NCBI RefSeq assembly: GCF_000332055.1 | Contig: NZ_ALVZ01000225.1 | Coordinates: 15,173 to 47,172 of the forward strand | Source: Xenococcus sp. PCC 7305 | GTDB lineage: Bacteria; Cyanobacteriota; Cyanobacteriia; Cyanobacteriales; Xenococcaceae | Reading direction: 5' to 3' | DNA: 32,000 nt | Notes under the pieces: model-generated | What the model saw: only the letters and a program-made list of their open reading frames with translations | The model's database searches: none | What the model was told of the DNA's origin: nothing | Made by a program: the position numbers and the translations under genes | Shown: one piece after another, positions 5,716 to 32,000 of the stretch | How the letters are laid out: the number at the start of each line of letters is the position of its first letter | How positions within the stretch are numbered: the stretch's first letter is position 1

Positions 5716-6507
5716 TTAAGACTCTCCTAGTAATATTTGGCGATTTTTTTGCAACTCTTTCAACAAAATTTGAATGGCTTTGTGTAAATCCTCTTCGGGA
5801 ATATATTGGGCAGAAACAATTCGAGGCATGGTCTTAACGAGCTCTTTATGCCCAAGCTTTTCCAGGATTCTTGCTAGCTCTGACCCCGACTTAACCTTGA
5901 TCCCATAGTTGGAGCATAGATAGTCTTTTATCTGTCTAAGACCTTGCCCTGCATAGCTCTTGCCTGTACGATTATCTATGGTTTGGATCGTTGGAACTTT
6001 AGTCTCGACAATTTGATCTGTTTTCCCCCGCAAGGCTAAAGTAACTTCTGCTCCATGCATAGTCACCATTGTATGGTCGAGCTCTTTCGACTCTTTTGTT
6101 GTTTTAGCGATCGCTAGCTGAAGCTCTAGTTCTCTTATGCGATCGCTTTGCTGGGGGATTACTTGCTTAATTACCTCCTTGGCTTTCGCAAAAGATTTTA
6201 CCAGTTTTCTTTTGCAAACTCTTGCTTTAGGCGTGTTTTTTGAGTAAGTAGCAATTAAATTGCATTGTTCTTCGGTCAGTAGAGCGTAGCGCTCAGGACG
6301 CCCACCCCGACTACCTTTGGAGGGTTTTCTCTTTTTAAACTCGATTACTCCCCAATCATCTTCAATCTCTTGCTGGAACTGGATTACAACGTTTTGGAGC
6401 CAATTTGAATGCTTTACTCCCAGCTCTTCCGCAATTAAACGAGAATCAACAACTAAAGTTTGCTCTAATGTTTGTTCGATTTTGATAAGATCTTCCATAG
6501 TCTGCAT
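5716..6507 (-). CDS. Rha-family phage regulatory protein
   Basis: The N-terminus LVVDSRLIAEELGVKHSNWLQNVV...GGRPERYALLTEEQCNLIATYSKNTPKARVCKRKLVKSF follows the Phage_pRha pattern (vsSR.iAe.fgK.H..vlr.i...GR....y.lt..g...L.mg..g..a...k..lI.aF). Confidence 0.65.
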   Translation of the reverse strand: MQTMEDLIKIEQTLEQTLVVDSRLIAEELGVKHSNWLQNVVIQFQQEIEDDWGVIEFKKRKPSKGSRGGRPERYALLTEEQCNLIATYSKNTPKARVCKRKLVKSFAKAKEVIKQVIPQQSDRIRELELQLAIAKTTKESKELDHTMVTMHGAEVTLALRGKTDQIVETKVPTIQTIDNRTGKSYAGQGLRQIKDYLCSNYGIKVKSGSELARILEKLGHKELVKTMPRIVSAQYIPEEDLHKAIQILLKELQKNRQILLGES

Positions 6508-8361: not shown

Positions 8362-9648
8362 ATGTTAACACGACGCATCACATTCAGGCTGTATCCTTCA
8401 AATTCTCAAGAACAGAAACTGTTCTGGGCAAGAAGAATGCACGCTTATTTGTACAATGCAGCTGTGTGCAACAGAAAAACTCAGTACCAAAGATTAGGCC
8501 ATTCGGTTGATTATTTTGAACAGCAAGCTTCATTGCCAAAATTTAAAGAAGTTTGGACAGAGTATAAAGAGCTTAATGCAGGTTCACTGCAAGCTACTTT
8601 AAAGCGAGTAGATTTTGCTTTTGTTCGTTTCTTTCAAGGACTAGGTGGTTATCCAAAATATCGTTCAATTAGAAAGTATTCTGGCTGGACTTATCCTGAC
8701 GGCAGACAAGGTTTCAAAGCTCATACTGAAGGTAAGAATGGTTATTTAGAGTTAAGAGACTTAGGGTTTAAAGTCCAAATGCGAGGTCAAGCTCGAACTT
8801 GGGGAAAGCCCACTACCTGCACTATCGTTTATCGTTCAGGTAAATGGTATGCCTCTATCACGGTCAGATGTTTTCCTACTAGAAAACTTGGGAAAGGAGC
8901 AATTGGGCTTGATTTTGGCTGCAAAACTGCTATAGCCGATAGCAATGGGAAGCAAGTTAAGCCTCCTAAGTTTCTAGCTAATGCTCAAAATGAAATCAAT
9001 CAATTGTCAAAGCAGCTAAGGAGAAAGAGAAGGCCAGAGAAGAGAAAACATAAAGGGTCTCGCCGCTGGAAAAAAGTACAAAGCAAGATCTCCAAACTCA
9101 AGAAAAAGATTGCAAATCAGCGTCAAAATTGGGTTCATCATCAAGCAGTAGAGATAGTAAGCTGTAATAGCCTCATTGCCACAGAGAAGTTGAACATCAA
9201 AAACATGACGCGTAAAGCCAAAAAAGGCAGCAAAAGAAAGCGACAAAAAGCTGGGCTAAATCGTTCAATGCTGGATGTTGGGATAGGGATGCTTAAGAAA
9301 GCGATTGCCTATAAGGCCAAGGAAGCTGGAGCAATTTATCTAGAGGCTCCGACAAAAAGCTTAAAGCCAACTCAAAGATGTGCAATATGCTGGAAACTTA
9401 CTAAAAAAGACTTGTCTGATAGGCTACATGTTTGTTCCAATAAAGATTGTAATCATACTGAAGATAGAGACGTTAATGCTGCTCAAGTTTGTCTCGCTTG
9501 GGCGCGTGGGCAGGAACTGTCCTCGTTGAAGACTGCTGATGAGTCTAGCTCTACTAGAAGCTCCAAAGTTAAAAGCTGCGGAGGCTTTCAGCAACTAGCT
9601 CAGGTGAAGCGTCAGAAACTCATGGCTCAACGAAGTAGCCATGAGTAG
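8362..9648 (+). CDS. tnpB: TnpB (IS605 OrfB-type RNA-guided nuclease), 428 aa, catalytic residues present
   Basis: N-terminus RRITFRLYPSNSQEQKL. RuvC-I GLDFGCKTAIADSNG, RuvC-II LIATEKLNIKNM, zinc ribbon CAICWK...CSNKDC and RuvC-III DRDVNAAQ are all present. It has a long C-terminal tail. Confidence 0.85.
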   Translation: MLTRRITFRLYPSNSQEQKLFWARRMHAYLYNAAVCNRKTQYQRLGHSVDYFEQQASLPKFKEVWTEYKELNAGSLQATLKRVDFAFVRFFQGLGGYPKYRSIRKYSGWTYPDGRQGFKAHTEGKNGYLELRDLGFKVQMRGQARTWGKPTTCTIVYRSGKWYASITVRCFPTRKLGKGAIGLDFGCKTAIADSNGKQVKPPKFLANAQNEINQLSKQLRRKRRPEKRKHKGSRRWKKVQSKISKLKKKIANQRQNWVHHQAVEIVSCNSLIATEKLNIKNMTRKAKKGSKRKRQKAGLNRSMLDVGIGMLKKAIAYKAKEAGAIYLEAPTKSLKPTQRCAICWKLTKKDLSDRLHVCSNKDCNHTEDRDVNAAQVCLAWARGQELSSLKTADESSSTRSSKVKSCGGFQQLAQVKRQKLMAQRSSHE

Positions 9649-9670
9649 TTCATAGGGACCGAAAAAGAAG

Positions 9671-16079: not shown

Positions 16080-16508
16080 ATGTGTTTTTGCGATAACATC
16101 CCAGACTACTACAAATCAACCAAAAGAAAAGCGAGGAAAACTCATGTTTGCGATGAGTGCAGTCAGCCAATAAAAAAGGGGACTCATTACTTTGTTGATC
16201 GCGGAGTAATAGATGGTGAATGGTACGGGAGTAAAAGGTGTCTTGAATGCGACGATCTTTACCATTTTTTGCTAGATAGGCTTGATTGTTTTTGCCCAAA
16301 CCTTGGCGAGCTAATGGAAGAAATAAGGGACTCGGACATTCAAAACGAAGATTACTTAATTCCTCTATTTTTAAACGAGCAGGGAATTTTGCAGGAGATG
16401 GACACTTCGGTCGAGGAAAGCAGCAAAGAATATGATGAATATCGGCATGATGCTTTTTTCGCTAGTCATTTTCGCTTGAAGGAAGCTTTTGTGAAGGAGG
16501 CTGCGTGA
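16080..16508 (+). CDS. Cys-rich (zinc-ribbon-like) hypothetical protein
   Basis: GGAGGG lies 4 nt upstream of the ATG at 16080, so the track's TTG at 16053 is less likely. CDEC...CLEC cysteine pairs are present. Confidence 0.5.
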   Translation: MCFCDNIPDYYKSTKRKARKTHVCDECSQPIKKGTHYFVDRGVIDGEWYGSKRCLECDDLYHFLLDRLDCFCPNLGELMEEIRDSDIQNEDYLIPLFLNEQGILQEMDTSVEESSKEYDEYRHDAFFASHFRLKEAFVKEAA

Positions 16509-17482
16509 AACTGACCATACCAAGTAAGGCTCCGATCGCAGTTGTAGGTTTTGCTGGAGGAGGCGGAGTGGAATGCGGGCTTCTAGCCGCAGGAATTCGT
16601 CCAGCTCTTTCTATCGAGTTCAACCCCCAAGATCCTAAGCTCTCAAGCGCGATCGCAGACTGTCATGAAGCCAATTTTAGTGAGTATGGCAAGCTCTTGA
16701 GAATGACCGTTGAGGATTGGACAAGCCAAGACTTTCCTGATTGCCCCGATCGCGTAGACGTAGCTCATTTTAGCCCCATGTGTTCTAATTTTTCTGTGGC
16801 TTCTCACGGGAAAGAAAGCGAAGAAGATATCGAAGCTGCTAAAGCGATCGCCGCTTTCATTGAAGCTAAGCAGCCTAGCTACTTCAGTTTAGAGAATGTC
16901 GTGGGCTACAAAAAATCTCAGTCCAGCTCTTATATTATTGCCAAGCTTGAAGCTTGTGGCTATTCCTTTGTCGAGACGGTTTTAGACTTTGCTGATTATG
17001 GAGTGTGCCAGTCGCGATCGCGCTATTTCATTATTGCTAGTAAACAATCTTTTGAATTTGACTTACCTAAGCAGCCGCGACAAGGGTGGCTAGAGGTTAT
17101 CGGAGACTTGCTCGAAGGGCTGCCTCTTAACGAGCTAACCAAGAACCAACAAGCCGCGATCGCAAAATACCAAGGCGATTTACCTTGTTTGCTACCACGG
17201 GTCGGCTATAGCAAATTACCTCGAATAAGACCTCCAGATAGAGTTGCGCCGACTATCACTAAATCGCTTTTTGTTGACGACAAGGGCTGTAGCCGCAATA
17301 AAGTTTGGAATATTTGGGACGGCAATAAATTAAGTCAAGTAGACATTGAATGCTTTCGTCGCTTGGCGACCTTCCCCGACTGGTATCAGTTCCCAAAAAA
17401 AATGGCTGTAGCAGGTTCAATCCTTGGTTACGCAGTCCCCCCAACAATCATCGAGCAGATCTACAGGAGGATTATGTTTTGA
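16505..17482 (+). CDS. DNA (cytosine-5) methyltransferase, orphan
   Basis: Motif I VVGFAGGGGVECG, motif IV HFSPMCSNFS, motif VI SLENV, motif VIII QSRSRYFIIA and motif X GYAVPP. The GTG start follows AAGGAGG and overlaps the previous stop (GTGA). Confidence 0.85.
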   Translation: MKLTIPSKAPIAVVGFAGGGGVECGLLAAGIRPALSIEFNPQDPKLSSAIADCHEANFSEYGKLLRMTVEDWTSQDFPDCPDRVDVAHFSPMCSNFSVASHGKESEEDIEAAKAIAAFIEAKQPSYFSLENVVGYKKSQSSSYIIAKLEACGYSFVETVLDFADYGVCQSRSRYFIIASKQSFEFDLPKQPRQGWLEVIGDLLEGLPLNELTKNQQAAIAKYQGDLPCLLPRVGYSKLPRIRPPDRVAPTITKSLFVDDKGCSRNKVWNIWDGNKLSQVDIECFRRLATFPDWYQFPKKMAVAGSILGYAVPPTIIEQIYRRIMF

Positions 17483-19691: not shown

Positions 19692-20255
19692 TTGAGCCTG
19701 CTCAAAAGAAAACTACCAGCACTAGAGTTTCTTGCGATCGCAAAAGTTGGAGATTTTGTTACTACTCCCAGTAGAGGAAAAATTGGCAAACTGATTCAGC
19801 TTGAAGACAAGCCCAATGGATCAACAGTTGCTCAAGTACTATGGGAAAATTCTTTTTCGACCGAAGCTTGCTGTCCTTCGGTCTTGCAGCGAATCGAGCC
19901 GGAGCTTTTAGATTGCCAATGGGTAGAAGGAAAAGGGTTTGTCCGTCCTTTTGATAAGAAAGCTTGCTACGACCTCAAGGAGTTGTGGGGTTTTACTAGA
20001 ACCTTGTGGGAAGAGCCTCAAAAGAAATGGGCTTGCGATCGCTATAATGCGATCGCCTCTGTTTGGTTTCGAGAACAAAATTTAGTGGAAAAAGAAGATC
20101 GTCGATACGCGATCGCGAATATCTTTCGTGGTTCTGGTCTGACCACCTTGGCTTGCTATTTGGTTAAGGATAAAGCGGTGACTTCCTTTTTCTATCCTCA
20201 CGAAGTTAAGCGAGTCAGCGTTGCCGAACAGATTAGATTTTTGACAAATTTTTGA
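19692..20255 (+). CDS. hypothetical protein (187 aa); true 5' end uncertain, stop codon supplied by the IS end
   Basis: The frame is open upstream to 19578 without a start codon. TGA at 20253-20255 lies inside the TTGAC terminus of the adjacent TnpB element. Confidence 0.5.
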   Translation: MSLLKRKLPALEFLAIAKVGDFVTTPSRGKIGKLIQLEDKPNGSTVAQVLWENSFSTEACCPSVLQRIEPELLDCQWVEGKGFVRPFDKKACYDLKELWGFTRTLWEEPQKKWACDRYNAIASVWFREQNLVEKEDRRYAIANIFRGSGLTTLACYLVKDKAVTSFFYPHEVKRVSVAEQIRFLTNF

Positions 20256-20291
20256 CCTACTCCCACGGCTGAAGCACGTGGGATTCGAGGC

Positions 20292-21413
20292 TCATGCAGA
20301 GATTGCAGCAGATAGCTGACTGACATCTCCTACCCTCAGAGTTGAAGCCCCAACTCTTAAAATGTTGACCGCTGCATTAGTATCACGCCCGTGCTTACAA
20401 CTACATGATGGGCAAGCCCAATAACGTTCAGCTAAAGACAATTCATCCAAAACATAGTCACAGCTAGAGCAAGTTTTAGATGATGGATACCATCGATCAA
20501 TATAACTAACAATCTTTCCTTTCTTTTGGGCAACAAACTCTAGTATTTTGAGAAACTCGCTAAAGGCCAAATCTCCTATCTTGCGCCCCCAGAGCCTTTG
20601 CATTCCTTTGAGGTTAAGAGTTTCAAAATAAAGATAATCATAGCCATCGGTTAACTGATGAGCTAATTTCCAGAACCAATCGCTTCGGCGGTTGGTTACC
20701 TTCTCATGAACTCTGACTAAATTTTTTCTAGCTTTTTCCCTTGAGTTTGAGCGTTTTTGCTTCCGAGAAAAATCACGGCTGGCTAACTTTAATCGCTTTA
20801 AAGACTGCTTAAGGAATAGAGGTGAATCAATGTCATTGCCATCAGAGCAAGTTAAAAATGTTTTTAACCCAAAATCAAAACCCGCGCTTTTACCCGTCAT
20901 GGAAGTGATTTGATAATCAACATGATCTGTTACTACAAAGATGAACAACTCCCCTAGGGGATTTCTTTTAATAGTTACAGTTTTAACTTTCCCTTGGATT
21001 TCTCTACTTTTCCAATAGCGATAAATTTTGTTGCCAATTTTAAGTTGATTGTTATCTAGAAATTTATACCCTGCTTGTTTAAGAGTGAATGACTTATATT
21101 TAATCCTCTTCCTAAAATTAGGTGGCCTGACTCCTTTTTTATGATGCTTGAAAAATAACTGATAAGCTCTATCGATTCGCTGCGCAATATCTTGGACAGC
21201 TTGAGAACCTACTAATTGCCAGTACTCATTTTTTCTCCTGAGTTTAGCAATATGCTTCATTAACCTATTTTTGTTTAAGTGCTTACCAAACATAGAATAA
21301 TAACGCTTATGCAAAGCTATGCAGTGGTTATAAATATTTCCTGCTGCATTAATTGAGCGATGCAAATGCTTATTTTTCTTATGCTGGTATAACTTAAATT
21401 TGTAGGTCTCCAT
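20292..21413 (-). CDS. tnpB: TnpB RNA-guided nuclease (373 aa), catalytic residues present
   Basis: METYKFKLYQHKKNKHL. RuvC-I AGFDFGLKTFLT, RuvC-II YLYFETLNLKGM, zinc ribbon CSSC...CPSC and RuvC-III GRDTNAAVNI are present. Confidence 0.9.
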   Translation of the reverse strand: METYKFKLYQHKKNKHLHRSINAAGNIYNHCIALHKRYYSMFGKHLNKNRLMKHIAKLRRKNEYWQLVGSQAVQDIAQRIDRAYQLFFKHHKKGVRPPNFRKRIKYKSFTLKQAGYKFLDNNQLKIGNKIYRYWKSREIQGKVKTVTIKRNPLGELFIFVVTDHVDYQITSMTGKSAGFDFGLKTFLTCSDGNDIDSPLFLKQSLKRLKLASRDFSRKQKRSNSREKARKNLVRVHEKVTNRRSDWFWKLAHQLTDGYDYLYFETLNLKGMQRLWGRKIGDLAFSEFLKILEFVAQKKGKIVSYIDRWYPSSKTCSSCDYVLDELSLAERYWACPSCSCKHGRDTNAAVNILRVGASTLRVGDVSQLSAAISA

Positions 21414-21455
21414 GTGTCTATGATAGCATAATCATAAACACAAATCAAATTATAA

Positions 21456-21854
21456 ATGGCGCAAAAATATCGACACAAAATTACTTCTGTGACTTTAATT
21501 AATTATCATTTTGTTTGGTGTCCAAGAAGACGAAAAAAAGTGTTAAAGGGGTTAGTTGCTGAACGACTGAAGCAATTAATAATTGAGGCTTGCCAAGAAA
21601 TTGATGTGACAGTATTAGCAATGGAAGTTATGAGCGATCATGTTCATGCTTTCTTAAATTGCCCTCCAACCCTTGCACCTTACCAAGTCATGCATAAAGT
21701 TAAGGGTTACACTGCCAGATACTTAAGACGAGAATTCAAAGAGCTACTTAAGCTTCCTTCAATGTGGACTAGAAGTTATTTTTGCTCTACTGCTGGGAAT
21801 GTTTCATCTAGTACTATTGAGAAATATATCGCTCAACAAAAAACCCGTGGCTAG
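21456..21854 (+). CDS. tnpA: IS200/IS605 Y1 (HUH) transposase TnpA, 132 aa
   Basis: YHFVWCPRRRKKVL, the HUH motif SDHVHAFL, KVKGYTARYLRREF and a C-terminal catalytic-Tyr helix STIEKYIAQQ. The gene is divergent from tnpB with a 42-nt gap. Confidence 0.9.
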   Translation: MAQKYRHKITSVTLINYHFVWCPRRRKKVLKGLVAERLKQLIIEACQEIDVTVLAMEVMSDHVHAFLNCPPTLAPYQVMHKVKGYTARYLRREFKELLKLPSMWTRSYFCSTAGNVSSSTIEKYIAQQKTRG

Positions 21855-22080
21855 AATATTTCATCCCACGGCTAAAGCACGTGGGCTTTCCTTTGCTGTA
21901 AACGGTAAGTGCGATCGCTCTAGGCAAGTGAATGCTCAATAACCAACCAAGTAGCTTGAGGATTAAATCCATTTCCTGCCAAGTCAGCAGCCTCAAACCC
22001 ATGCTCAGTCATAGTTTAAGCTAATTTTTTTGAGCGAAAGTCAGCACCTTTTATAATTGATTTGACGCTCGGCATTGCAA

Positions 22081-22287
22081 CTAGTTCAAATAGCCCAAAA
22101 TAGGCTGGCTGAAAATATTAATCAAAACTCCGATCGCGATCGTGGCCAATAACCACTGTGCAGATTGTAATGTTTTATCAATACTGCTTATTTTTTGTTC
22201 GATTACGGCTAACCTTTCTGAGTTCTTGATTAGCTGCTGAAGCATAGCTCCTTCGTAATTTAGTTTTTGCTCTTGCTCTGTCATCAT
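22081..22287 (-). CDS. small coiled-coil protein with C-terminal transmembrane helix (XhlA/holin-like)
   Basis: LAVIEQKISSIDKTLQSAQWLLATIAIGVLINIF has a coiled coil followed by a hydrophobic helix. It lies downstream of an XRE gene. Confidence 0.4.
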   Translation of the reverse strand: MMTEQEQKLNYEGAMLQQLIKNSERLAVIEQKISSIDKTLQSAQWLLATIAIGVLINIFSQPILGYLN

Positions 22288-22335
22288 AAATCCTCTATTT
22301 TAAAAATTCTCTATAGGATTATTTTTTCGGTGGGG

Positions 22336-22575
22336 CTATTCGTCGCGATCTGGCACCAAGCTTTTCCCTAATGCTTTTTCCATTCCCCTTAATGTTTCAA
22401 CTGGCAAGTCTCTCACTTTTTCATTTTCGATGCGATTCCAGTGACTGTAGCTAATACCTGCATTTGCAGCTAATTCAGTCATACTTTTCCCTGATTTCTT
22501 GCGAAACTCTCTAATCTTTTCTCCCAAACCAGGATAGTTTTTACTGAAGACGACTCTCATCAAAAGTGAATCCAT
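22336..22575 (-). CDS. XRE-family HTH regulator (79 aa or shorter)
   Basis: IREFRKKSGKSMTELAANAGISYSHWNRIENEK is a canonical HTH_XRE core. Confidence 0.75.
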   Translation of the reverse strand: MDSLLMRVVFSKNYPGLGEKIREFRKKSGKSMTELAANAGISYSHWNRIENEKVRDLPVETLRGMEKALGKSLVPDRDE

Positions 22576-22749
22576 AAGTGTTACTCCTTAAGTTTGTCTT
22601 ATGTAGTTGCCTTTTATTATAGCTTCTTAAGCGTCGCTTGCAAAGTGTCTCTTGATAAGATACAATATTTTTATAACAAAAGCGACCTCATTTCTTTGGA
22701 CGGAGCTGAGATCGCCTTTGCTGTAAACAAAATTATTGTTATACCCATC

Positions 22750-22944
22750 ATGACACAGCAACTACTCGAAGCTCAAGTAGCTTCATCAGAATTTGACGAG
22801 CGACCCCGCGCCGCCGACAGGCGTTTATCCTCGAATGGGGACAAGGGAACCCCCATTCGAGGACAAGCGCGCGAGTTTGATGCACTAGCATTCGAAATCA
22901 AGCATTTTGAAGATTATCAAAGATTAAACACTCCCTACTACGAA
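22750..22944 (+). pseudogene. N-terminal half of a gene split by a TnpB element
   Basis: The ATG is at 22750 (MTQQLLEAQ...RLNTPYYE). The next 7 codons and the stop come from the IS end. The paralogue at the window end reads ...PYYEILSDYDYND without interruption. Confidence 0.7.
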
Positions 22945-24187
22945 TTGACATACTCCCCGCCCTAAAGGTGCGGAGATTCTGGGATCAAGCAGCAATTGCG
23001 CCCAAAGAGCGTCTTACATCGCCTAGCCCAAGAGAAGATGCCCCTTCTCTTTTAATGTTCTTAGCTGCATTCAAATCTCGATCCAACTTGGAGCCACAAC
23101 CAGGACAATCCCAAACCCTATCTTTGAGAGTTAATTCTTTATTGTGATATCCACAATCAAAACAAGTTTTGGAGCTGGGATAAAACCGATCAATAAAATG
23201 TATTGTCTTTCCTTTATTCCTAGCTACTGTTTCCAGGATTTCTAAAAAAGTTGAGAAAGATAAATCACTGACTTTTCTCCCCCACAACTTTTTCATTCCT
23301 CTAAGATTTAAATCTTCAAAAATTAGCACATCATAATCATTTGTCAATTTATGGGCTAACTTCCAAAACCAATCTCTACGTTTATTGGAAATTCGCTCAA
23401 ATACTCGATTGAGATTGTCTTTGGCCTTGTACCAATTATTAGAACCTTTTTTCTTCTTAGAAAGATTTCTGCTAGCAGCTTTCAACAAATGTCTAAACTC
23501 ATTAAAAAACAAAGGAGATTTGATAGTTGTTAAGTCACTTGCAGTTAAAAATGTTTTTAACCCAAAATCGAAGCCTGCAATTTTACCTGTCACGACTCCG
23601 AAAGATTCATCTTTATAGCCAGTTACCACTAAGATAAATAACTCACCAAGATGATTGCGCTTAACCGTCAGCGTTTTAATCTTTCCTTTTATTTCTCTAC
23701 TTTTCGAAAATTTATAAATTTTATTCCCTATCCGAATTTTGTTGTCTTCTAAGAACCTGTATCCTGCTTGCTTTAGAGTGAATGATTTATATTTTCTGGT
23801 CTTTTTGAAGTTAGGGGGTCTTGTCCCTGACTTGCATTGCTTAAAAAATAATTTATAGGCTTTATCGATTCTTTGACAAATATCTTGTACTGCTTGGGAG
23901 CCAACTTGCTGCCAATATTTTATTCGTCTTCTAAGCTTAGCAATATGCTTCATGAGCCTGTACATGTTCAAGTGCTTACCAAAGATTTTGTAGTATCTTT
24001 TATGCAAGGCAATACAATGATTGTAGATACTTCCACTAGCATTGATTTGCCAATTCAGGTATCTATTCTTCTTTGACTTGTATAGCTTGAACTTGTACGT
24101 TTTCATGAGAATATTTTATCATGAATTACTTGATTAGTACTAAAGAATTACGCCCTGAAGGGCGGGGCTTTAAACCCATGATTTTAG
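22945..24187 (-). mobile_element. tnpB-only IS200/IS605-type element inserted in a coding sequence
   Basis: RE is TTGACATACTCCCCGCCCTAAAGGTGCGGAGATTC at 22945 onward. LE is TTACGCCCTGAAGGGCGGGGCTTTAAACCCATGATTTTAG(G), ending at about 24187. GTAA (TTAC on the element strand) lies at 24188-24191. Boundaries are supported by the empty paralogous site. Confidence 0.75.
22985..24106 (-). CDS. tnpB: TnpB RNA-guided nuclease (373 aa), close paralogue of 20292-21413
   Basis: MKTYKFKLYKSKKNRYL. RuvC-I AGFDFGLKTFLT, RuvC-II VLIFEDLNLRGM, zinc ribbon CFDC...CPGC and RuvC-III DRDLNAAKNI are present. Confidence 0.9.
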   Translation of the reverse strand: MKTYKFKLYKSKKNRYLNWQINASGSIYNHCIALHKRYYKIFGKHLNMYRLMKHIAKLRRRIKYWQQVGSQAVQDICQRIDKAYKLFFKQCKSGTRPPNFKKTRKYKSFTLKQAGYRFLEDNKIRIGNKIYKFSKSREIKGKIKTLTVKRNHLGELFILVVTGYKDESFGVVTGKIAGFDFGLKTFLTASDLTTIKSPLFFNEFRHLLKAASRNLSKKKKGSNNWYKAKDNLNRVFERISNKRRDWFWKLAHKLTNDYDVLIFEDLNLRGMKKLWGRKVSDLSFSTFLEILETVARNKGKTIHFIDRFYPSSKTCFDCGYHNKELTLKDRVWDCPGCGSKLDRDLNAAKNIKREGASSLGLGDVRRSLGAIAA

Positions 24188-24394
24188 GTAATCGCTAAGT
24201 TCGACTATAACGACGGAATCAACAAATTCACTCTTCTTGCCGATTGTTTCATCGCAGGACATTACTATCGCGACCCCTGGAGCTCCGATTGGATTGGCAA
24301 ATCTTATTGCAATGGCAATAGCGAAGAAGTTCTTTTCTCCACTAGAGATTTAGCCGTGGCTTACCTTAAACGCCAATATCTCGCATCCTGTTAA
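24188..24394 (+). pseudogene. C-terminal half of the split gene (paralogue of 31780-31983)
   Basis: VIAKFDYNDGINKFTLLADCFIAGHYYRDPWSSDWIGKSYCNGNSEEVLFSTRDLAVAYLKRQYLASC* is nearly identical in length and sequence to the minus-strand ORF at 31780-31983. It has no start codon, and a TAG inside the IS end immediately precedes it. Confidence 0.75.
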
Positions 24395-24450
24395 TTATTT
24401 AGCTCGCCATTTAATTGGCGGGCATTTTTATTATTTATTTGGAGGCAATC

Positions 24451-25143
24451 ATGCCAAACATAGAAATTTTCAATTTTGAAGAGCAGCCAGTTCGTTTTGT
24501 TGGTACAGCAGAAAAGCCTTTGTGGGTAGGAAAAGATATTTGCGATATTTTGAGCCTTTCGAAGTATAGGGATGCCTTGGCAAGATTGGACTCAGATGAA
24601 AGGGAGCTGGTATTACTGGACACCCCTGGAGGTAAACAGTCAGTAACGTGCATTAACGAATCGGGAATGTATTCTCTGATCTTTGACTCGCGAAAACCCC
24701 AAGCAAAAAGATTAAAAAAATGGGTGACTTCTGAAGTCTTGCCTAGTATTCGCAAAACTGGGAGTTACGCGATCGCACAAAGCTCCGCTTCGCAGTCAGC
24801 AAAAAACGAATCCACTCTTTCAATTCAAGATCAAATCCTAATTGCTAATTTTGGAGCTGAATCAGCGATCAACGCAGGAGTCTCGAAGCCGATCGCAGAA
24901 TCAATTAAGTTAGATTCACTAGGAAACGTTTTACCTGAAGCCAAGCCATTATTGCTTCCTCAAAAAAATGCGATCGCATCTGCTAATCCCATTGAAGAGC
25001 AGCCTGTCTCTCCGACAATTATTGGGCAAAGAGTTGCCGCCAAAATGGGGCTGGACAAGGTTTCTGCGATCGCGGTCAACAAAAAACTGCTATCTCTTGG
25101 CTATCAACTATCAGTCACTAGATTGACATGCTCTCCGACCTGA
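24451..25143 (+). CDS. BRO-N domain phage antirepressor-like protein, 3' end altered by IS insertion
   Basis: GGAGG lies 7 nt upstream of the ATG at 24451. FEEQPVRFVGTAEKPLWVGKDICDILSL...INESGMYSLIFDSRKPQAKRLKKWVTSEVLPSIRKTGSY is the Bro-N signature. The last 6 codons and the stop are IS end sequence. Confidence 0.8.
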   Translation: MPNIEIFNFEEQPVRFVGTAEKPLWVGKDICDILSLSKYRDALARLDSDERELVLLDTPGGKQSVTCINESGMYSLIFDSRKPQAKRLKKWVTSEVLPSIRKTGSYAIAQSSASQSAKNESTLSIQDQILIANFGAESAINAGVSKPIAESIKLDSLGNVLPEAKPLLLPQKNAIASANPIEEQPVSPTIIGQRVAAKMGLDKVSAIAVNKKLLSLGYQLSVTRLTCSPT

Positions 25144-26517
25144 AGGTACGGAGATTCTAGCACCTCACGACGCTAGCTTTCTGCTTCGACCTGTGCCAAC
25201 TAGAGCATCGTGACCGATACTCCCCGTCGCTTCCAGTCCACAGACATTTTCAACCACGCTATGCCCTAGCGCAGAGACTCCTCTATTTCTTATTTCTTGG
25301 CTAGCTGCTACGTCCCTTGTAGTTCTATATCCACACTCACCGCAATGATGAAAGCGAATATCTAAAGTTTTCTTGCCTGTATGTGCGCCACAGTTAGGGC
25401 AAGTTTGGCTTGTCCCATCTTTATTGACCACAGCAAAATACACATCACGACGGAAACATACCCACTCAAGAATACTTACAAACTGGCCAAATCCAGCATC
25501 GGCACTATGTTTTGAAAGCATTCCTCTTTGCCAAGAAACGAAATTGATGTCTTCTACGAATATCATTCCTGTTCCATCACAAAGATGATGAGCTAATTTA
25601 AAGTGCCAATCTTTTCTGGTGTCAGATATTCGTTGATGCAGTCTAGCTATTTTTTGATTAAGCTTGTGTCGATTATTTGAGCCCTTGTGCTTATTCTTTA
25701 ACCTGCGTTGTAGCAATTTAAGCTTACGATGCATGAGCTTTAAGAATCGAGGTCGTTTAATTTCTTCTCCATCACTGGTGGCAACAAATTTGTCGTATCC
25801 TAAATCCAATCCCCTAGGATGACCATGCGGCAATGGATTTGGGGTATCGACCTTTAGCTGTAATGACAACATCACGAAATAACCAGACGCTTTTCTAACG
25901 ACCCTTGCTTGCTTGACTTCAAAACCTTCAGGAATATCTCTTGATTTGCGCCATCTAATCCACCCAAATTTTGGCAGCTTAATAGCATCATCTTTGATTG
26001 GATTTTTCCCTAGTTGAGGAAAAACAAATGAGCGCATTCGATACCTATTTTTGAACCGAGGGAATCCAAACCCTCTAGATCTCATATCGTCCCAAGCTCT
26101 ATCTAATATTCTTAAAGTTTGCTGTAACACTTGAGAATGAACAGAACTTAATGCAGGATAGAGCTTTTTTGCATCTGTTAGCTGTTTGGCTTGTTGGTGA
26201 TAGCTAGGGAATGGTTCATCAACAGAGATTATATATTCTGAATTAATCGAGCAGGCATTTACAAGAGACTTACGAGAGTTACACCAGTCTTTGCGCTGTC
26301 TGAGCGCAAAATTCCAAACAGAACGACAAATATCGAGTGTTTTTTCGATGTCAGTAATTTGCTCTTTTGTTGGCTGTAGCTTGTATTCGTAAGTCATTGT
26401 TAGCATTTAGCTATTATAGCTTACATGGGGAGCGGCAGCATGTAAAGTTTTGAGCAAGTCAATATACAGGAAGGCTTACGCCCTAAAGGGCGAGGTTTTA
26501 GACCCATGATCCCAAGG
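25123..26517 (-). mobile_element. tnpB-only IS200/IS605-type element, with ends like 22945-24187 but a different TnpB
   Basis: RE is TTGACATGCTCTCCGACCTGAAGGTACGGAGATTC at 25123 onward. LE is TTACGCCCTAAAGGGCGAGGTTTTAGACCCATGATCCCAAGG, ending at 26516 or 26517. Confidence 0.7.
25165..26406 (-). CDS. tnpB: TnpB RNA-guided nuclease (413 aa), distinct subfamily
   Basis: TYEYKLQPTKEQITDIEKTL. RuvC-I RGLDLGYDKFVATSDG, RuvC-II MIFVEDINFVSW, zinc ribbon CPNC...CGEC and RuvC-III TRDVAASQEI are present. Confidence 0.85.
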   Translation of the reverse strand: MLTMTYEYKLQPTKEQITDIEKTLDICRSVWNFALRQRKDWCNSRKSLVNACSINSEYIISVDEPFPSYHQQAKQLTDAKKLYPALSSVHSQVLQQTLRILDRAWDDMRSRGFGFPRFKNRYRMRSFVFPQLGKNPIKDDAIKLPKFGWIRWRKSRDIPEGFEVKQARVVRKASGYFVMLSLQLKVDTPNPLPHGHPRGLDLGYDKFVATSDGEEIKRPRFLKLMHRKLKLLQRRLKNKHKGSNNRHKLNQKIARLHQRISDTRKDWHFKLAHHLCDGTGMIFVEDINFVSWQRGMLSKHSADAGFGQFVSILEWVCFRRDVYFAVVNKDGTSQTCPNCGAHTGKKTLDIRFHHCGECGYRTTRDVAASQEIRNRGVSALGHSVVENVCGLEATGSIGHDALVGTGRSRKLAS

Positions 26518-26534
26518 ATAAAATAACTACCTCT

Positions 26535-26578: not shown

Positions 26579-27181
26579 CTAAACTCTGGGCAATGTTACT
26601 CCGTGACCTTGATTTTGGTATTTTCCACCGCGATCAGCATAGGTTGTTTCACAGGGTTCCCCTTCAAAAAACAATAATTGTACTACCCCTTCACTAGCAT
26701 AAATTTTTACATCGGCACTAGAAGCATTAGAAAATTCAAGCGTAATACTTTGACTCTTCCAAGAAGCTTCTAACGGTGTAATATTAGCGATTACTCCAAC
26801 ACGCGCATAGGTTGACTTGCCAAGACAAACAGCAGTTACATTAGAAGGCATCTTGATGCTTTCGAGTGACGCGCCTAATCCATAACTATTGGCTGGAATT
26901 ATGAAGTAAGAAGAACCATCTTTATTAGTGTGTAATTCAGCTTGTTCTAAGTTTCTAGGATTGAAATCTTTGGGATCTACTACCGTCCCAGGGATATGTC
27001 TAAAAATCCTGAAATCATGCGGAGATAAACGTATATCGTATCCGTATGAACTCAACCCCCAACTGATAGTTGGAACTTCTTTGTCTGTACCTAAAATTGC
27101 TTTTCTGATTGATTTTTTTTCAAAAGGAGAAATCATTCCTTTACTGGCCTGATCAATAATCCATTTATCGTTTTTTAGCAT
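26579..27181 (-). CDS. dcd: dCTP deaminase
   Basis: Collinear with the short bacterial Dcd form: KWI...GMI.PF, GLSSYGYDIRL, VDPK.F, IIPANS, CLGKSTYARVGVIANITPLE, TLEFSN and YADRGGKYQNQ.GVTLP. Confidence 0.85.
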   Translation of the reverse strand: MLKNDKWIIDQASKGMISPFEKKSIRKAILGTDKEVPTISWGLSSYGYDIRLSPHDFRIFRHIPGTVVDPKDFNPRNLEQAELHTNKDGSSYFIIPANSYGLGASLESIKMPSNVTAVCLGKSTYARVGVIANITPLEASWKSQSITLEFSNASSADVKIYASEGVVQLLFFEGEPCETTYADRGGKYQNQGHGVTLPRV

Positions 27182-28173: not shown

Positions 28174-28510
28174 CGTTTTTGTCCTCTTTTTGTAAATAGC
28201 AAAATGCTTGTATAGGGAACCCGTTTCCTAAGTGGAAGCAAGAATAGATAGCCGTTAGTTCAATGGAGCGATCGTCAAAATATTGTCTTAAAAACTCTTG
28301 CGACCAAGCAGGGGATCCGTATGGGAATTTCTTCGAGGCTTTTGACCGAGCAAGTTTGTCTTTTTCGTAGTCCCACTGACTCAGGCGATCGCTATAAACT
28401 CCATGATCACCCTCTTTTCTTTGCCCCCAAATTAGTCTTTCTGTTGCAAATCGGCGATCGGTGCAATGCGGCGAGAAATTAGGGGTTTTTTGAGTTGACA
28501 ATGTCTTCAT
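28163..28510 (-). CDS. hypothetical protein (115 aa)
   Basis: It overlaps both neighbours (32 nt and 11 nt) in one minus-strand operon. Confidence 0.4.
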   Translation of the reverse strand: MKTLSTQKTPNFSPHCTDRRFATERLIWGQRKEGDHGVYSDRLSQWDYEKDKLARSKASKKFPYGSPAWSQEFLRQYFDDRSIELTAIYSCFHLGNGFPIQAFCYLQKEDKNDDI

Positions 28511-29453
28511 TTTTCTTACTCCATTGTTTAATTAAATCTTCTACTCCATCAGAAAGACAGCTATATTTTGTCAAAAGCTCAGCGCAGAGAATAGGGTCTA
28601 TTTTTAGGTAAACCTTATTTTCTACAGGCAACAAAAACTGATAACTGATGTCAGGGATTATTTGTTCGCCACGTTGTATAGTCGCTCCAAATTCTCCAGC
28701 TTCTGTGATGCGGACGTGAGAGCCTTTGTGTCCAACAAGCGCTGGATGCTCCGAATCTTTCTTGACCATCGCCAAGCTTCCGACGGCCGGATTTTTCCGC
28801 TTTTTGTCTCGTAGTTCAATCCTAGACGCTTTGGTTCGCGCCTCGTAGGGATGGAGATCTGGTAGCTGACTTTCAAGTTCTATTACCTCTTTTTTCGTTA
28901 AGTTTTTTGTAACCGCAGATGGTGCGATCCCTGCCTTATCCGCGATCGCATTTACGGATTCGGCGTATTTACCGTCACGCTTGATTGTTTTGGCACTTAC
29001 CCCATGCTCAGCAGCTAGTTTTTCGGCTGTGTTAGTTTTAGCTCTTGTAGGTGTTAAGGGGACATTTTGTCCCTTTACCTGTTGATCGTCCCCGCCTTTT
29101 TGTTCGTTATAAATCAAGCCTCGAAAGTAAGAAACTAGATTTGGTGGCAAGTTGCGACGACCAAGCTGGTTTTTGATCATCCATTTTTTGACTGATGAGC
29201 GATCGCTAAACTTTAGCCGGAGAACATTAAATTCGATGTCTTCCTGTTGGCAAATTTCGTAGCGGTGATGACCATCAATAATAATGTCTTGATCTTTCCA
29301 GACAATTATTTCTGGAGTGATGTCACCTGTAAGAAGGTTTTCCTTGAGCTGCGATCGCGCTTCGGGGGTCAGAGGTGGCAGTAGTCGCTGAAACTCAGGA
29401 TCGATCTTAAGTTTAGGCAAGGATGGCACGATTTTAAGTTGAGCTACCATCAT
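28479..29453 (-). CDS. ParB-like nuclease-domain protein with C-terminal HTH region
   Basis: KIDPEFQRLLPPLTPEA...IIVWKDQDIIIDGHHRYEICQQEDIEF...NQLGRRNL is the ParB/Srx N-terminal domain signature (DGHHR). Confidence 0.75.
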   Translation of the reverse strand: MMVAQLKIVPSLPKLKIDPEFQRLLPPLTPEARSQLKENLLTGDITPEIIVWKDQDIIIDGHHRYEICQQEDIEFNVLRLKFSDRSSVKKWMIKNQLGRRNLPPNLVSYFRGLIYNEQKGGDDQQVKGQNVPLTPTRAKTNTAEKLAAEHGVSAKTIKRDGKYAESVNAIADKAGIAPSAVTKNLTKKEVIELESQLPDLHPYEARTKASRIELRDKKRKNPAVGSLAMVKKDSEHPALVGHKGSHVRITEAGEFGATIQRGEQIIPDISYQFLLPVENKVYLKIDPILCAELLTKYSCLSDGVEDLIKQWSKKNEDIVNSKNP

Positions 29454-29545
29454 CTAATCTCCAGGGGACTCCCGTTAAAGCCGACAGGCTTAGCGGGAGG
29501 GGAATGGAGGTCAACAAATAACCTGAGCGTAGCGAATCCCTTTTT

Positions 29546-30820
29546 TTAGTAAACATAATTGTATCCGTCGTTTTTATGGACATGAGTTAAGTATTTTGGA
29601 TGAACATCAAACTTCTTATCAGGTAACTGAAGAACAAAACTAGGACGAAATCTAATAGCAATTCTGCCTAGATATTGACCTGTAAATTTACCTTTAAGGA
29701 TAGATGCCGATACCAAATCTCCTGTTTGAAATCCTCGAAAGAATTTAGCTTTAGAAGCATGGCTTTTGGGGAATCCAAACTTGTTAGGACGGCATCGTTG
29801 CCTTGTTCCGTGACCTGTTGCCTTAATCAACAAGGGTTGATTAGTTTTAAAGATTAGATCCTTAGAAAGTTGACCTACACAAGCAGCATCTTGCCAATGA
29901 GTCTTGGGAACTTTTAATTGTTTGCGATTAAACTTAGTCAATCCTCCACTCCCTGTCTCTACTGGGAATCCAAATTCTTTGAGCGAATTAAATAATTTCC
30001 AACGGGTAGAATTAACAGCGGCAGCATCCTTTAAAGGAGTCTTTGCTTGCTTTAAAATACGGTTAATCAAGTCAGGCTTCTCTTTTAGAAAGTCCTTGAT
30101 ATCTTGGTTCCCCTTAGATTGATTACAGTCATGACAAGCTAAAGTTAAATTGGAGACTCGATCAGAGCCACCTTTTGAGCGGGCTTTGATATGGTCAACC
30201 TCAAAAGGAACATTTTGTGCCCCACAATATTGACAGGTACGATTAAACTTATTTAGCAGGTACTCTCGAACCTCCCAACCGTAAAGAGTTCCGTGTTGAT
30301 ACTCAACTCCACTAATCTCAGGGTTCTCCTGTTTTTGTAAGTCAAATTTAACCAACTCAACAGAAATTGAATCTACAGGGCAATATCTTATTAATCTTTT
30401 AACCCAAGTTAAAGTAGTATCTACTCGATGCTGGAGGCTTGGGGGGAGCCAACCTTTGGGGCGAGTTCTGTTAAGAAATCTTGGTTGACGATAACGGGTT
30501 TTACGTCCTCGCCTTCCTTTTCTTAATTGTCGCCTTGAGGTTAATTTATCCTTGATATGTTGTCCTCTATGCTGTAATTCCGCTCCCCAAATAACCCGAT
30601 TGTTTTGCAACAACGCAATTCCAGTTTTTTGAGAACCTGGGTCAAGCTTTAATTTGACATTCTTCTGAGTTTCTTTTGCTTCCTCCTTGAGAATAATAGT
30701 GAAAGGATAACGCCGAAATACAGCAGCCTTCCCCTCTGTTAATAATCGTCTTGCCTGCCCAGGATGAACAGGGTTTAACGGGTTTTTAACTGTATCTAGA
30801 ACAAAAACATAATTTTGCAT
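29546..30820 (-). CDS. iscB: IscB RNA-guided nuclease (PLMP domain, split RuvC, HNH insert), 424 aa
   Basis: PLMP-like NPLNPVHPGQARRLLTEGKAAV, RuvC-I KLDPGSQKTGIAL and bridge helix RRQLRKGRRGRKTRYRQPRFLNRTRPKGW. RuvC-II ISVELVKFD, HNH CQYCG...EVDHIKARSKGGSDRVSNLTLACHDCNQSKGN and RuvC-III THWQDAACVG. Confidence 0.85.
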   Translation of the reverse strand: MQNYVFVLDTVKNPLNPVHPGQARRLLTEGKAAVFRRYPFTIILKEEAKETQKNVKLKLDPGSQKTGIALLQNNRVIWGAELQHRGQHIKDKLTSRRQLRKGRRGRKTRYRQPRFLNRTRPKGWLPPSLQHRVDTTLTWVKRLIRYCPVDSISVELVKFDLQKQENPEISGVEYQHGTLYGWEVREYLLNKFNRTCQYCGAQNVPFEVDHIKARSKGGSDRVSNLTLACHDCNQSKGNQDIKDFLKEKPDLINRILKQAKTPLKDAAAVNSTRWKLFNSLKEFGFPVETGSGGLTKFNRKQLKVPKTHWQDAACVGQLSKDLIFKTNQPLLIKATGHGTRQRCRPNKFGFPKSHASKAKFFRGFQTGDLVSASILKGKFTGQYLGRIAIRFRPSFVLQLPDKKFDVHPKYLTHVHKNDGYNYVY

Positions 30821-31064
30821 TTTAAGTCTCCCGTTAGGGGTAATGTTTGCCTCGCTTGGTTATCTAACTTTGTTCGGTCTAATTCACTGGATTAACCCGT
30901 TTAGTCCTGTTTAAAATTAAACGACAGAGCTTAAAGCTGGCACGTACCTTAAGGTGTCATAAGTTAAATAACGTTTACTGAAGTTTTCAGTAAGCTGGTC
31001 ACCTTGCGGACTTTTTCAAGCCCCCGTTAAATTGCGGAGCAATTAACGGTGGGTCGGTGACGGG
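30821..31064 (-). ncRNA. candidate IscB omega-RNA scaffold
   Basis: 244 nt with no ORF directly upstream of iscB on the same strand. Nested helices: 30998-31003 with 31056-61, the 31021-31053 hairpin and the 30977-30991 hairpin. OMEGA IscB systems encode their guide RNA in this position. Confidence 0.55.
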
Positions 31065-31070
31065 TTTAAA

Positions 31071-31158
31071 GTAGTAAGTAGTAAGTAGGAAGTAGTAAGT
31101 AGGAAGTAGTAAGTAGGAAGTCGTTAAAACTTTCTACTTTCTACTCTCTACTTCCTAC
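31071..31158. repeat. heptamer array B: 7 x GTAG(T/G)AA, an 11-nt spacer, then 4 inverted units (TTTCTAC-type), forming an imperfect palindrome
   Basis: Read directly. Forward units are at 31071-31119, the spacer GTCGTTAAAAC at 31120-31130 and inverted units at 31131-31158. TTTAAA precedes it at 31065-31070. Confidence 0.9.
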
Positions 31159-31407
31159 TTTCAAGATCTCCTCTATATGTTTAGCGTCGGCAACTACTTG
31201 TTTAAAGGCTTGTCTGCCTTGTGCGATCGCTTTTTCTTTGTCGGCCATTGATTCGCCGATTAAAGTTCGATTCTCTAAATAAGAGCGAACCCAATATTTG
31301 TAGCTGGGTGGGCGATCGGGCTCTGTGACCTCAACTAAGTTCAGGACGCAGCTTGCTTCTTTTGCGATCGTCTCTTCGACGTAGGTTTTTCCTGGGGCAA
31401 TTGGCAT
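31141..31407 (-). CDS. hypothetical protein (88 aa) bracketed by heptamer arrays
   Basis: The ATG lies 3 nt after TTTAAA of array C (minus strand). The last about 9 codons (ILKVGSRE) are encoded by the inverted heptamer units. Confidence 0.45.
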   Translation of the reverse strand: MPIAPGKTYVEETIAKEASCVLNLVEVTEPDRPPSYKYWVRSYLENRTLIGESMADKEKAIAQGRQAFKQVVADAKHIEEILKVGSRE

Positions 31408-31416
31408 GGCTTTAAA

Positions 31417-31458
31417 GTAGGGAGTAGGAAGTAGGGAGTAGGAAGTAGGGAGTAGGAA
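31417..31458 (+). repeat. heptamer array C: 6 x alternating GTAGGGA / GTAGGAA, preceded by TTTAAA
   Basis: Read directly. TTTAAA is at 31411-31416. Confidence 0.9.
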
Positions 31459-31526
31459 GTTATAAATATTTTACTGGCAAGCTGAACACAATGTTTCTTG
31501 CTTTATACAAAAAACATCTATGCTTC

Positions 31527-31779: not shown

Positions 31780-32000
31780 TTAACAAGATGCTGCGTACTG
31801 GCGTTTCAAATAAGCAACAGCTAAATCTCTAGTGGAGAAAAGAACCTCTTCGGTATTGCCGTTACAGAAAGATTTGCCAACCCAATCGGAGCCCCAGGGG
31901 TCGCGATAGTATTGCCCTGCAACGAAACAATCGGCGAGAAGGGTAAATTTGTTGATTCCGTCGTTATAGTCGTAATCGCTCAAGATTTCGTAGTAGGGAG
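31780..32000 (-). CDS. uninterrupted paralogue of the IS-split gene, 5'-partial at window edge
   Basis: The track starts it at TTG 31983, but the frame stays open to nt 32000 (…PYYEILSDYDYND). It matches the junction of the two halves at 22750-22944 and 24188-24394. Confidence 0.7.
   Translation of the reverse strand, partial: PYYEILSDYDYNDGINKFTLLADCFVAGQYYRDPWGSDWVGKSFCNGNTEEVLFSTRDLAVAYLKRQYAASC

Follow-up and report, generated by a model that had tools for sequence, protein, structure and literature searches.

Three IS608-like IS200/IS605 elements, one a probable mosaic of ends and TnpB gene, in phage-like DNA of Xenococcus sp. PCC 7305

In a stretch of 32,000 nt from Xenococcus sp. PCC 7305, a cyanobacterium of the order Pleurocapsales (contig NZ_ALVZ01000225.1; the whole stretch is referred to as the window), three elements that carry tnpB genes were studied: E1 (20252-21904), E2 (22945-24187) and E3 (25123-26517), for all of which the minus strand is the top strand of the element. 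They probably represent three independent insertions of IS608-like elements of the IS200/IS605 family, of which E1 is autonomous, E2 is a coherent member of its lineage and E3 is a chimera. Sequence comparison indicates that E3 is a mosaic, in which a core of the TnpB3 clade is enclosed by ends of the class found in E2. This account is built on the anatomy and boundaries of the elements, the covariation within their ends, the co-occurrence of end classes with transposase lineages and the breakpoints of the mosaic, all of which were observed directly.

E1 is of the IS605 type, with the order left end, tnpA (divergent), tnpB, right end, and its boundaries lie after TCAA at the right and after TTAC at the left. 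Its right end (20252-20286, minus strand) consists of GAAT-C, the bulged hairpin CCCACG-T-GC/GC-CGTGGG, a linker and the terminal TCAA. Its left end together with the TTAC target (21859-21908, minus strand) contains a hairpin at 21865-21885 with AAAG at its foot, and the target reads GTAA at 21905-21908 on the plus strand. E2 and E3 are non-autonomous elements with tnpB only; the organization of E2 is IS1341-like. The right ends of E2 (22945-22979) and E3 (25123-25157), again on the minus strand, both belong to the class GAATC-NCCGNNCC-TTNA-GGNCGGN-GAG-NATGTCAA. On the same strand, the left end of E2 and its TTAC target (24140-24191, the target itself at 24188-24191) contain a hairpin at 24151-24164, AAAG and a linker ..ATCATGGGTTT, and the left end of E3 and its TTAT target (26470-26521) contain a hairpin at 26479-26492 and AAAA, with ATAA at 26518-26521.

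One layout is common to all three. At the left, the cleavage point behind TTAC (TTAT in E3) is followed by 19-22 nt, AAAG (AAAA in E3) and the hairpin; at the right, GAAT-C is followed by a hairpin of 8 bp, in which one base bulges and the loop reads TTYA, by AGNANG and by the TCAA after which the element ends. The tetranucleotides at the hairpin feet were found where expected in each of E1-E3 (AAAG with TTAC, GAAT with TCAA), and relatives showed the coupling of TTAC to AAAG and of TTAT to AAAA likewise. Folded as single-stranded DNA, all six ends gave hairpins, of which the three at the right each have one bulged base. The polarity is the same at both ends; the hairpins are subterminal imperfect palindromes without terminal inverted repeats, and comparison of the flanks revealed no target-site duplication at E1, E2 or E3. 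E1, E2 and E3 are canonical IS608-like IS200/IS605 elements.

An earlier reading of the window, made by a model from the letters and a list of open reading frames (ORFs), and here called the sequence-only reading, had described three collinear right ends. The three strings it quoted were located exactly at 20252, 22945 and 25123, and the frame GAATC-N7-CTTNAG-N7-AGNANGTCAA is found at these three sites of the window only, where shuffled sequences are expected to give none. The CTTT or GTTT it had noticed at the left ends corresponds to the reverse complement of AAAG (E1 and E2) or AAAA (E3) beside the hairpin. Its remark that changes in the right-end stems compensate was borne out in a comparison set of 146 distinct related ends of 35 nt: 93.7% of the cells were paired, as against 69% after shuffling and 35-49% in slid registers, and two-sided changes numbered 231 as against 66 in shuffles. 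That the ends resemble each other by chance, for which the shortness of the motif speaks and nothing else, has a negligible probability and was rejected, because three sites were found where none is expected from shuffles, hundreds of homologous ends lie beside TnpB genes and the covariation is strong.

The genes tnpB1 (20292-21413) and tnpB2 (22985-24106) each encode 373 aa and tnpB3 (25165-26406) encodes 413 aa; all three lie on the minus strand, and their products contain the Pfam domains OrfB_IS605 and TNB (Cas12f1-like_TNB in TnpB1). The assignment of TnpB1 and TnpB2 as close relatives and of TnpB3 as distinct was correct: TnpB1 and TnpB2 are 64% identical, whereas TnpB3 is 28-30% identical to either of them, and an HTH_OrfB N-terminus is present in TnpB3 alone. 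TnpB1 matched the ISDra2 TnpB structures at 1.5e-42 and contains the RuvC motifs GFDFG, FETLN and RDTNAA. By domains and alignment the RuvC triad and the zinc finger are intact: the D, E and D motifs of RuvC are kept in TnpB1 and TnpB3, as aligned to ISDra2-type structures, and in TnpB2 by way of its alignment with TnpB1. The tnpA gene (21456-21854, plus strand, divergent from tnpB1) encodes a Y1 HUH transposase of 132 aa (Pfam Y1_Tnp, 4.6e-39), and it is indeed restricted to E1, as no other TnpA was detected within the window by tblastn. In alignments with Sulfolobus IS200-type and ISHp608 structures, TnpA has both its HUH motif (DHVHAF) and its C-terminal Tyr in place; the archaeal IS200-type TnpA 2ec2 (7e-36) was nearer to it than the TnpA of IS608 (9e-26). 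At 90% identity TnpB1 clusters with another copy from elsewhere in the genome of Xenococcus sp. PCC 7305, and TnpB3 is single-copy in the protein collection, which agrees with E1 being the active element. Abundant TnpBs with 78-86% identity to TnpB3 occur in Moorena, Crocosphaera, Waterburya, Xenococcaceae and Pleurocapsa.

The mosaic structure of E3 became visible when it was compared with ten relatives of the TnpB3 clade (52-86% protein identity; Moorena, Crocosphaera, Xenococcaceae, Pleurocapsa and others). The only part of E3 that aligned with them begins about 20 nt before the ATG and stops where the right-end hairpin starts (GAATC). The first 90 nt or so of E3 have no match in the ten relatives and match the left end of E2 (88.6% over 35 nt). 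With a repeat finder, the right ends of E2 and E3 were 86% identical over 37 nt and their left ends 85% over 40 nt. The left-end and right-end hairpins of E1 are 92% alike and are unlike the hairpins of E2 and E3.

The general frame of the right ends was found at at least 120 loci in viral contigs, and many of the matches listed have A+T-rich stems unlike those of E1-E3. As it recurs in ends with unlike stems, the 18 of the 35 aligned right-end positions represent a frame common to the IS608-like ends collected. The class to which E2 and E3 belong was present at at least 120 loci in bacterial contigs (one genome per species), and the matches listed are almost all from cyanobacteria. The TnpBs that adjoin right ends of this class belong to many clades, including TnpB1-like ones, and in cyanobacterial genomes many such right ends have no tnpB within 3.5 kb. 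Among the 146 ends, 20 foreign right ends are nearer to E3 than E2 is, and 32 are nearer to E2 than E3 is; the nearest to E3, with two differences, is L259, from another cyanobacterial genome. By this comparison there is no evidence for a private relationship between E2 and E3 at the right end. Of the earlier statement that E2 and E3 combine near-identical ends with clearly different TnpBs, the similarity and the difference were both confirmed by measurement, but the right ends merely share a very common cyanobacterial class.

The left ends of E2 and E3 fit a widespread class, TTAC/C(R)AAAA..TGGGTYTAAAG-CCYCGYCC-loop-GGRCGR (the slash marks the boundary), which has AAAA variants with TTAT targets. 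Of 62 sampled ends of this class the nearest to E3 is E2 (36/48), followed by that of L331 (35/48), the closest relative of E2. A recent and direct exchange of ends between E2 and E3 in this genome, either by recombination or by composite excision from the tandem, is unlikely. The two elements do lie in tandem and in the same orientation, 935 bp apart, and both the order of the left ends just given and their BLAST match are in favour of such an exchange. However, 5 of 35 right-end and 6 of 40 left-end positions differ, which is more than in many pairs from different genomes, and the 20 foreign right ends are nearer to E3. Besides, the left foot and target are not the same (AAAG/TTAC against AAAA/TTAT) and the linkers differ in length by 2 nt.

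For the clade of TnpB1 and TnpB2, 80 metagenome loci were recovered (L263-L342), their ends were scored as CCCAC class or other class, and a neighbour-joining tree of 79 TnpBs was made. The TnpBs nearest to that of E1 (L263 and L264, 82-91% identity) have E1-type right ends that differ by 1-2 nt, and in the set of right ends the foreign ones nearest to E1, likewise 1-2 nt different, come from the TnpBs closest to TnpB1. Those nearest to TnpB2 (L331 and L336, 87-88% identity) have E2-type ends, and their DNA is homologous to E2 over its full length (81-83%). As the nearest relatives of E1 and of E2 share their end types, neither E1 nor E2 is a recent chimera. Over the whole tree the end class changes about 10 times; with shuffled labels the mean was 18.5 and the minimum 13. 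Ends and TnpB are thus mixed at depth in this clade. The end-swapping that the sequence-only reading suggested fits the mosaic E3 and the modularity of ends and cargo; the contrast between the hairpins of E1 and E2 involves no swap between these two copies. Scans of proteins from viral contigs yielded just three relatives of TnpB2 and two of TnpB3.

The clearest case of exchange is L312. Its ends are of the CCCAC class and its TnpA shares 67% identity with that of E1 (TnpA1). Its TnpB has 90-91% identity with the TnpBs of L288, L305 and L277, whose ends are of the other class. DNA homology of L312 with these three (80-84%) spans only the region from the ATG of tnpB to the GAATC of the right end; the left ends are unrelated, the right-end hairpins differ, and L312 alone contains tnpA and has a wholly unrelated upstream region. 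These data bear on the idea that the hairpins converged by point mutation, selected to fit the resident TnpA, without recombination. The stems of right ends do change very rapidly and with compensation, even where the TnpBs are about 90% identical, and the sequence space of G+C-rich stems of 8 bp is small. The idea is nevertheless very unlikely to be right: the entire 90-nt left end of E3, including the linker ATCATGGGTCTAAAA outside the hairpin, is unlike the ten relatives yet matches E2, and L312 differs from its three relatives in the presence of tnpA and in its whole upstream region.

Among L263-L342 there are elements with nearly identical left-end hairpins (CCCCGTCC-TTCT-AGGACGG), and in these the right-end stems differ almost wholly even at about 90% TnpB identity. 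The changes in these stems are always compensated and the basal CCCCG/CGGGG pairs are retained. In these elements the upper stem of the right end seems to change far more rapidly than the left end.

The end classes are related to the transposase. In all fetched loci with TnpA1-like genes (60-67% identity; 10/10) these are flanked by left ends of the type ..GCAAAG-CCCAC..GTGGG-ATG, and those right ends that could be seen are of the type GAATC-CCACG..CGTGGG. A second TnpA lineage (37-45% identity to TnpA1) occurs with CCCC(C)G or CCCCT stems. A third, 27-29% identical to TnpA1, was found in 5/5 loci that combine tnpA with ends of the E2/E3 class. The difference between 10/10 and 5/5 is significant (Fisher p about 3e-4) and indicates that the TnpA lineage tracks the basal stem of the hairpin. 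Within the window the tnpA-bearing E1 has CCCAC-class ends and E2 and E3 have ends of the other class, so that the shared end class by which one TnpA could serve many cargoes is not found here; the TnpA lineage associated with the E2/E3 class is not in the window. By this association the TnpA of E1 is probably not the natural partner or mobilizer of E2 and E3.

The sequence-only reading had offered the mobilization of all three elements in trans by the single tnpA of E1 as an explanation. In its favour, this is the sole tnpA of the window, E1 and E2 share GAAT/TCAA, AAAG/TTAC, similar TTYA loops and a bulged right-end stem, and in Geobacillus stearothermophilus one TnpA moves several families (PMC10055086). 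It is quite unlikely here, as TnpA1-like transposases always accompany CCCAC...GTGGG stems and those of E2/E3-class loci are only 27-29% identical to TnpA1. E3 would also need a TTAT target with AAAA, and its single copy gives no sign of recent mobilization.

Several points weigh against our account of three independent insertions with a chimeric E3. The link between the E2/E3 class and its TnpA comes from five loci only, two of which are viral contigs of unknown host, and the census of TnpA covers the window only. E1 and E2 have the same tetranucleotides at the hairpin feet and cleavage sites, and TnpA is thought to read the shape of a hairpin more than its sequence. Given the common feet, cleavage sites and loops, cross-mobilization of E2 and E3 by the TnpA of E1 is possible. 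Some relatives of the TnpB3 clade (L126 and L345) have left-end hairpins of the type AAAA-CCCCGTCC with large loop insertions, and the left end of E3 may come from a lineage inside its own clade that escaped detection by BLAST. The view that this end is wholly foreign to its clade was softened for that reason. Finally, the TnpB tree is a neighbour-joining tree without bootstrap support.

For transposition, RNA production and nuclease activity of E1-E3 we infer the following steps from the IS608 and ISDra2 paradigm. The Y1 TnpA would bind the subterminal hairpins on the top strand, which is the minus strand of the window. It would cut behind TTAC or TTAT on the left and behind TCAA on the right, at sites specified by the foot tetranucleotides of the hairpins (AAAG or AAAA; GAAT). 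The element would then move as a single-stranded circle. The tnpB transcript would yield an omega-RNA, the scaffold of which ends at the right end and the guide of which is flanking DNA. TnpB would cut the empty donor joint, where the transposon-associated motif (TAM) and a match to the guide occur together, and the element would be copied back by recombination. The collinear right ends would serve both as substrate of TnpA and, in the omega-RNA model, as 3' end of the scaffold, and only their stems are free to vary, which they do with compensation. The CCCAC-stem class of E1 goes with its TnpA lineage, and E3 would consist of a TnpB3-type core (promoter, gene and omega scaffold) in E2-class ends, as one case of a frequent reassortment of cargo and end modules. 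E3, the Bro-N gene and E2 form a tandem (22945-26517) in which both elements have the same orientation and one end class. In principle, this 3.6-kb segment is movable as a composite by a transposase that uses the left end of E3 and the right end of E2, and the tandem could be the kind of intermediate from which such reassortment arises.

IS608 (ISHp608) of Helicobacter pylori is the paradigm of the IS200/IS605 family (TnpA structures 2a6m and 2vhg). Like IS608, E1 has a Y1 HUH TnpA and a TnpB, and the elements have imperfect subterminal hairpins on the same strand without inverted repeats or target duplication. Insertion 3' of TTAC, a right end in TCAA, GAAT 5' of the right hairpin and AAAG 5' of the left one are also shared. 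Differences from IS608 are the divergent tnpA and tnpB of E1, an arrangement known from IS605 proper, the unrelated stems of the hairpins and the use of AAAA with TTAT by E3. The extrahelical base of the right-end hairpin is on the 5' arm in E1-E3, and in IS608 it is on the 3' arm. The TnpB of ISDra2 from Deinococcus radiodurans (structures 8exa and 8h1j), reportedly characterized by Karvelis et al. in 2021, resembles the present ones in the fold and the RuvC motifs, and in the predicted omega-RNA, which overlaps the 3' end of tnpB and takes its guide from the flank. Its identity to TnpB1 and TnpB3 is low, and unlike E1-E3 ISDra2 has the pentanucleotide TTGAT as target and TAM, and tnpA and tnpB that are co-directional and overlap. 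E2 and E3 carry tnpB alone between IS200/IS605 ends, as IS1341-type elements do. The right ends of their class without tnpB within 3.5 kb are consistent with PATE-like derivatives; E2 and E3 differ in that they keep an intact tnpB with catalytic motifs.

A close parallel to the locus in cargo and ends is ISGst1-5 of Geobacillus stearothermophilus, five families with highly similar ends and differing cargos (TnpB variants, IscB). Most of their copies are without tnpA, one TnpA excises several families, and TAM, guide and target site are coupled; the authors explicitly describe the components as modular (Meers et al., 2023; PMC10055086). Similar ends, different nuclease cargos and copies with tnpB only are found at the present locus as well. 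Here, unlike in ISGst, the only tnpA of the window belongs to a different end class from both tnpB-only elements, and within one TnpB clade at least three pairings of TnpA lineage and end class occur. The mechanism of E1-E3 is no departure from the known IS200/IS605 and OMEGA mechanism. Modularity of ends and cargo and mobilization in trans have been published already (Meers et al., 2023), and the present locus is another instance of such modularity. The concrete point is that TnpA-specific end classes are exchanged repeatedly within one TnpB clade, even at about 91% TnpB identity. The tracking of the basal stem by the TnpA lineage yields a testable rule by which the transposase that mobilizes a given orphan tnpB element could be predicted. 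The locus offers a compact natural setting for tests, with four TnpB genes, an IscB, a TnpA and a paralogue that matches the E2 guide without a TAM in 32 kb of phage-like DNA.

The omega-RNA scaffold predicted for E1 (20252-20401, minus strand) overlaps the 3' end of tnpB1, with a putative guide of 16-20 nt at 20232-20251. When the final 150 nt of 23 elements from the E1/E2 clade were folded to a consensus, four stems were predicted in the coding region in addition to the right-end hairpin, with compensatory changes in 19 of 34 pairs, pairs in the coding region included. This fits a model in which the 3' region of these elements is an omega-RNA scaffold that ends at the transposon boundary. 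In the omega region of E3 sequence conservation alone was seen. At the gathering threshold no Rfam family was found over the omega-RNA regions of the TnpB elements; HEARO was the only family detected. The predicted guides, all on the minus strand, are AAATTTGTCAAAAATCTAAT for E1 (20232-20251; predicted TAM TTAC), TTCGTAGTAGGGAGTGTTTA for E2 (22925-22944; TTAC) and TCTAGTGACTGATAGTTGAT for E3 (25103-25122; TTAT).

Simulated excision showed what the insertions did to the genes on the opposite strand. Removal of E1 restores an ORF ending in ...TNL-stop, as had been foreseen, and removal of E3 one ending in ...SVTRIK-stop. Removal of E2 gives an ORF of 133 aa, the C-terminal 68 aa of which match the 105-aa paralogues P0121, P0122 and P0123, and these intact paralogues span the insertion site at the protein level. 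Since excision restores an ORF that matches this family, E2 truly interrupts a gene; E1 and E3 lie at the 3' ends of genes. Each right end does supply a stop codon to the antisense gene, as had also been stated: TGA at 20253-55 within the terminal TTGA of E1, and TAA at 22963-65 and TGA at 25141-43 in the hairpin loops of E2 and E3. These codons follow from the right-end sequence, as the reverse complement of TCAA contains TGA and that of the TTYA loop contains TAA or TGA. In the antisense direction two of the three frames stop within seven codons in any such right end, and the pattern was rejected as significant on this ground.

The copy of the gene interrupted by E2 contains an in-frame, G+C-rich insertion of about 84 nt at 22797-22880 that is missing from the 105-aa paralogues. 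It holds a 20-nt inverted repeat (22821-22840 and 22851-22870, 90% complementary) and may be a small palindromic mobile insertion. An intact paralogue of the gene is present in the window from 31780 to beyond 32000 on the minus strand. The first 14 nt of the E2 guide are matched perfectly in it, with the seed match at 31987 on the plus strand. Beside the insertion point, 15 nt of the paralogue (31972-31986, minus strand) are inverted with respect to the E2 copy (24188-24202, plus strand), ATCTTGAGCGATTAC against GTAATCGCTAAGTTC, so that AGAT replaces TTAC at the TAM position of the paralogue. Its protein reads ILSDY, where three relatives have VIAKF, VIGRF or VIGHF, and at the protein level two other members of the family side with the E2 copy at this stretch. 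One breakpoint of the inversion is the exact TnpA cleavage point behind TTAC. That the E2 nuclease shaped its paralogous target, the inversion being a selected escape allele or the scar of an aberrant transposase event, is a very doubtful proposition on these sequences; if true, the inverted paralogue would be a natural "drive-resistance" allele against homing by TnpB.

The DNA of the window has a G+C content of 42% and contains 57 copies of the cyanobacterial HIP1 octamer GCGATCGC. In Pfam scans its gene content was phage-like, with the major capsid protein GP7 (23-829), Rha (5716-6507), a C5 DNA methylase (16505-17482), Bro-N (24415-25143) and a dCTP deaminase (26579-27181). Five genes for RNA-guided nucleases (four tnpB and one iscB) are present in these 32 kb, with one tnpA. 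The fourth tnpB (8362-9648, plus strand; Pfam), the product of which has 428 aa, belongs to another subfamily, with 25% identity to TnpB3 and ends outside the IS608 frame. At its 3' end (9509-9655) a stretch of 147 nt matches a Stanieria cyanosphaera plasmid with 86.5% identity, and this was the sole match when plasmid and phage collections were searched for near-identity with positions 1-25000 of the window.

A complete IscB element occupies 29454-31061, with the plus strand as its top strand. Its iscB gene (29546-30820, minus strand) has the Pfam domains RRXRR and HNH, and a HEARO omega-RNA lies upstream of it (30840-31061, minus strand; Rfam RF02033, 127 bits against a gathering score of 83). 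The left-end hairpin of the element (29468-29498, plus strand) is identical in 31 of 32 positions to that of a TnpB3-clade element of Pleurocapsa PCC 7319, and the right-end hairpin (31021-31053) is similar to the one in another TnpB3-like element. The end type that several TnpB3-clade relatives have elsewhere (L348 and L124) is therefore borne here by IscB, and TnpB3 itself has E2-class ends. The IscB element adjoins the ATG of a ParB-like ORF (28479-29453), and the end of the element may supply the GGAG ribosome-binding site of this ORF. Runs of a heptamer repeat (CTACTYC, minus strand) are present at 31062-31160 and 31405-31465, on both sides of an ORF of 88 aa (31141-31407), and each terminates in CTACTTTAAA(G/C)CC. 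The first run is a long imperfect palindrome with many TTAC motifs just outside the right end of the IscB element, and the IscB guide CTACTTACTACTTTAAACCC falls inside it.

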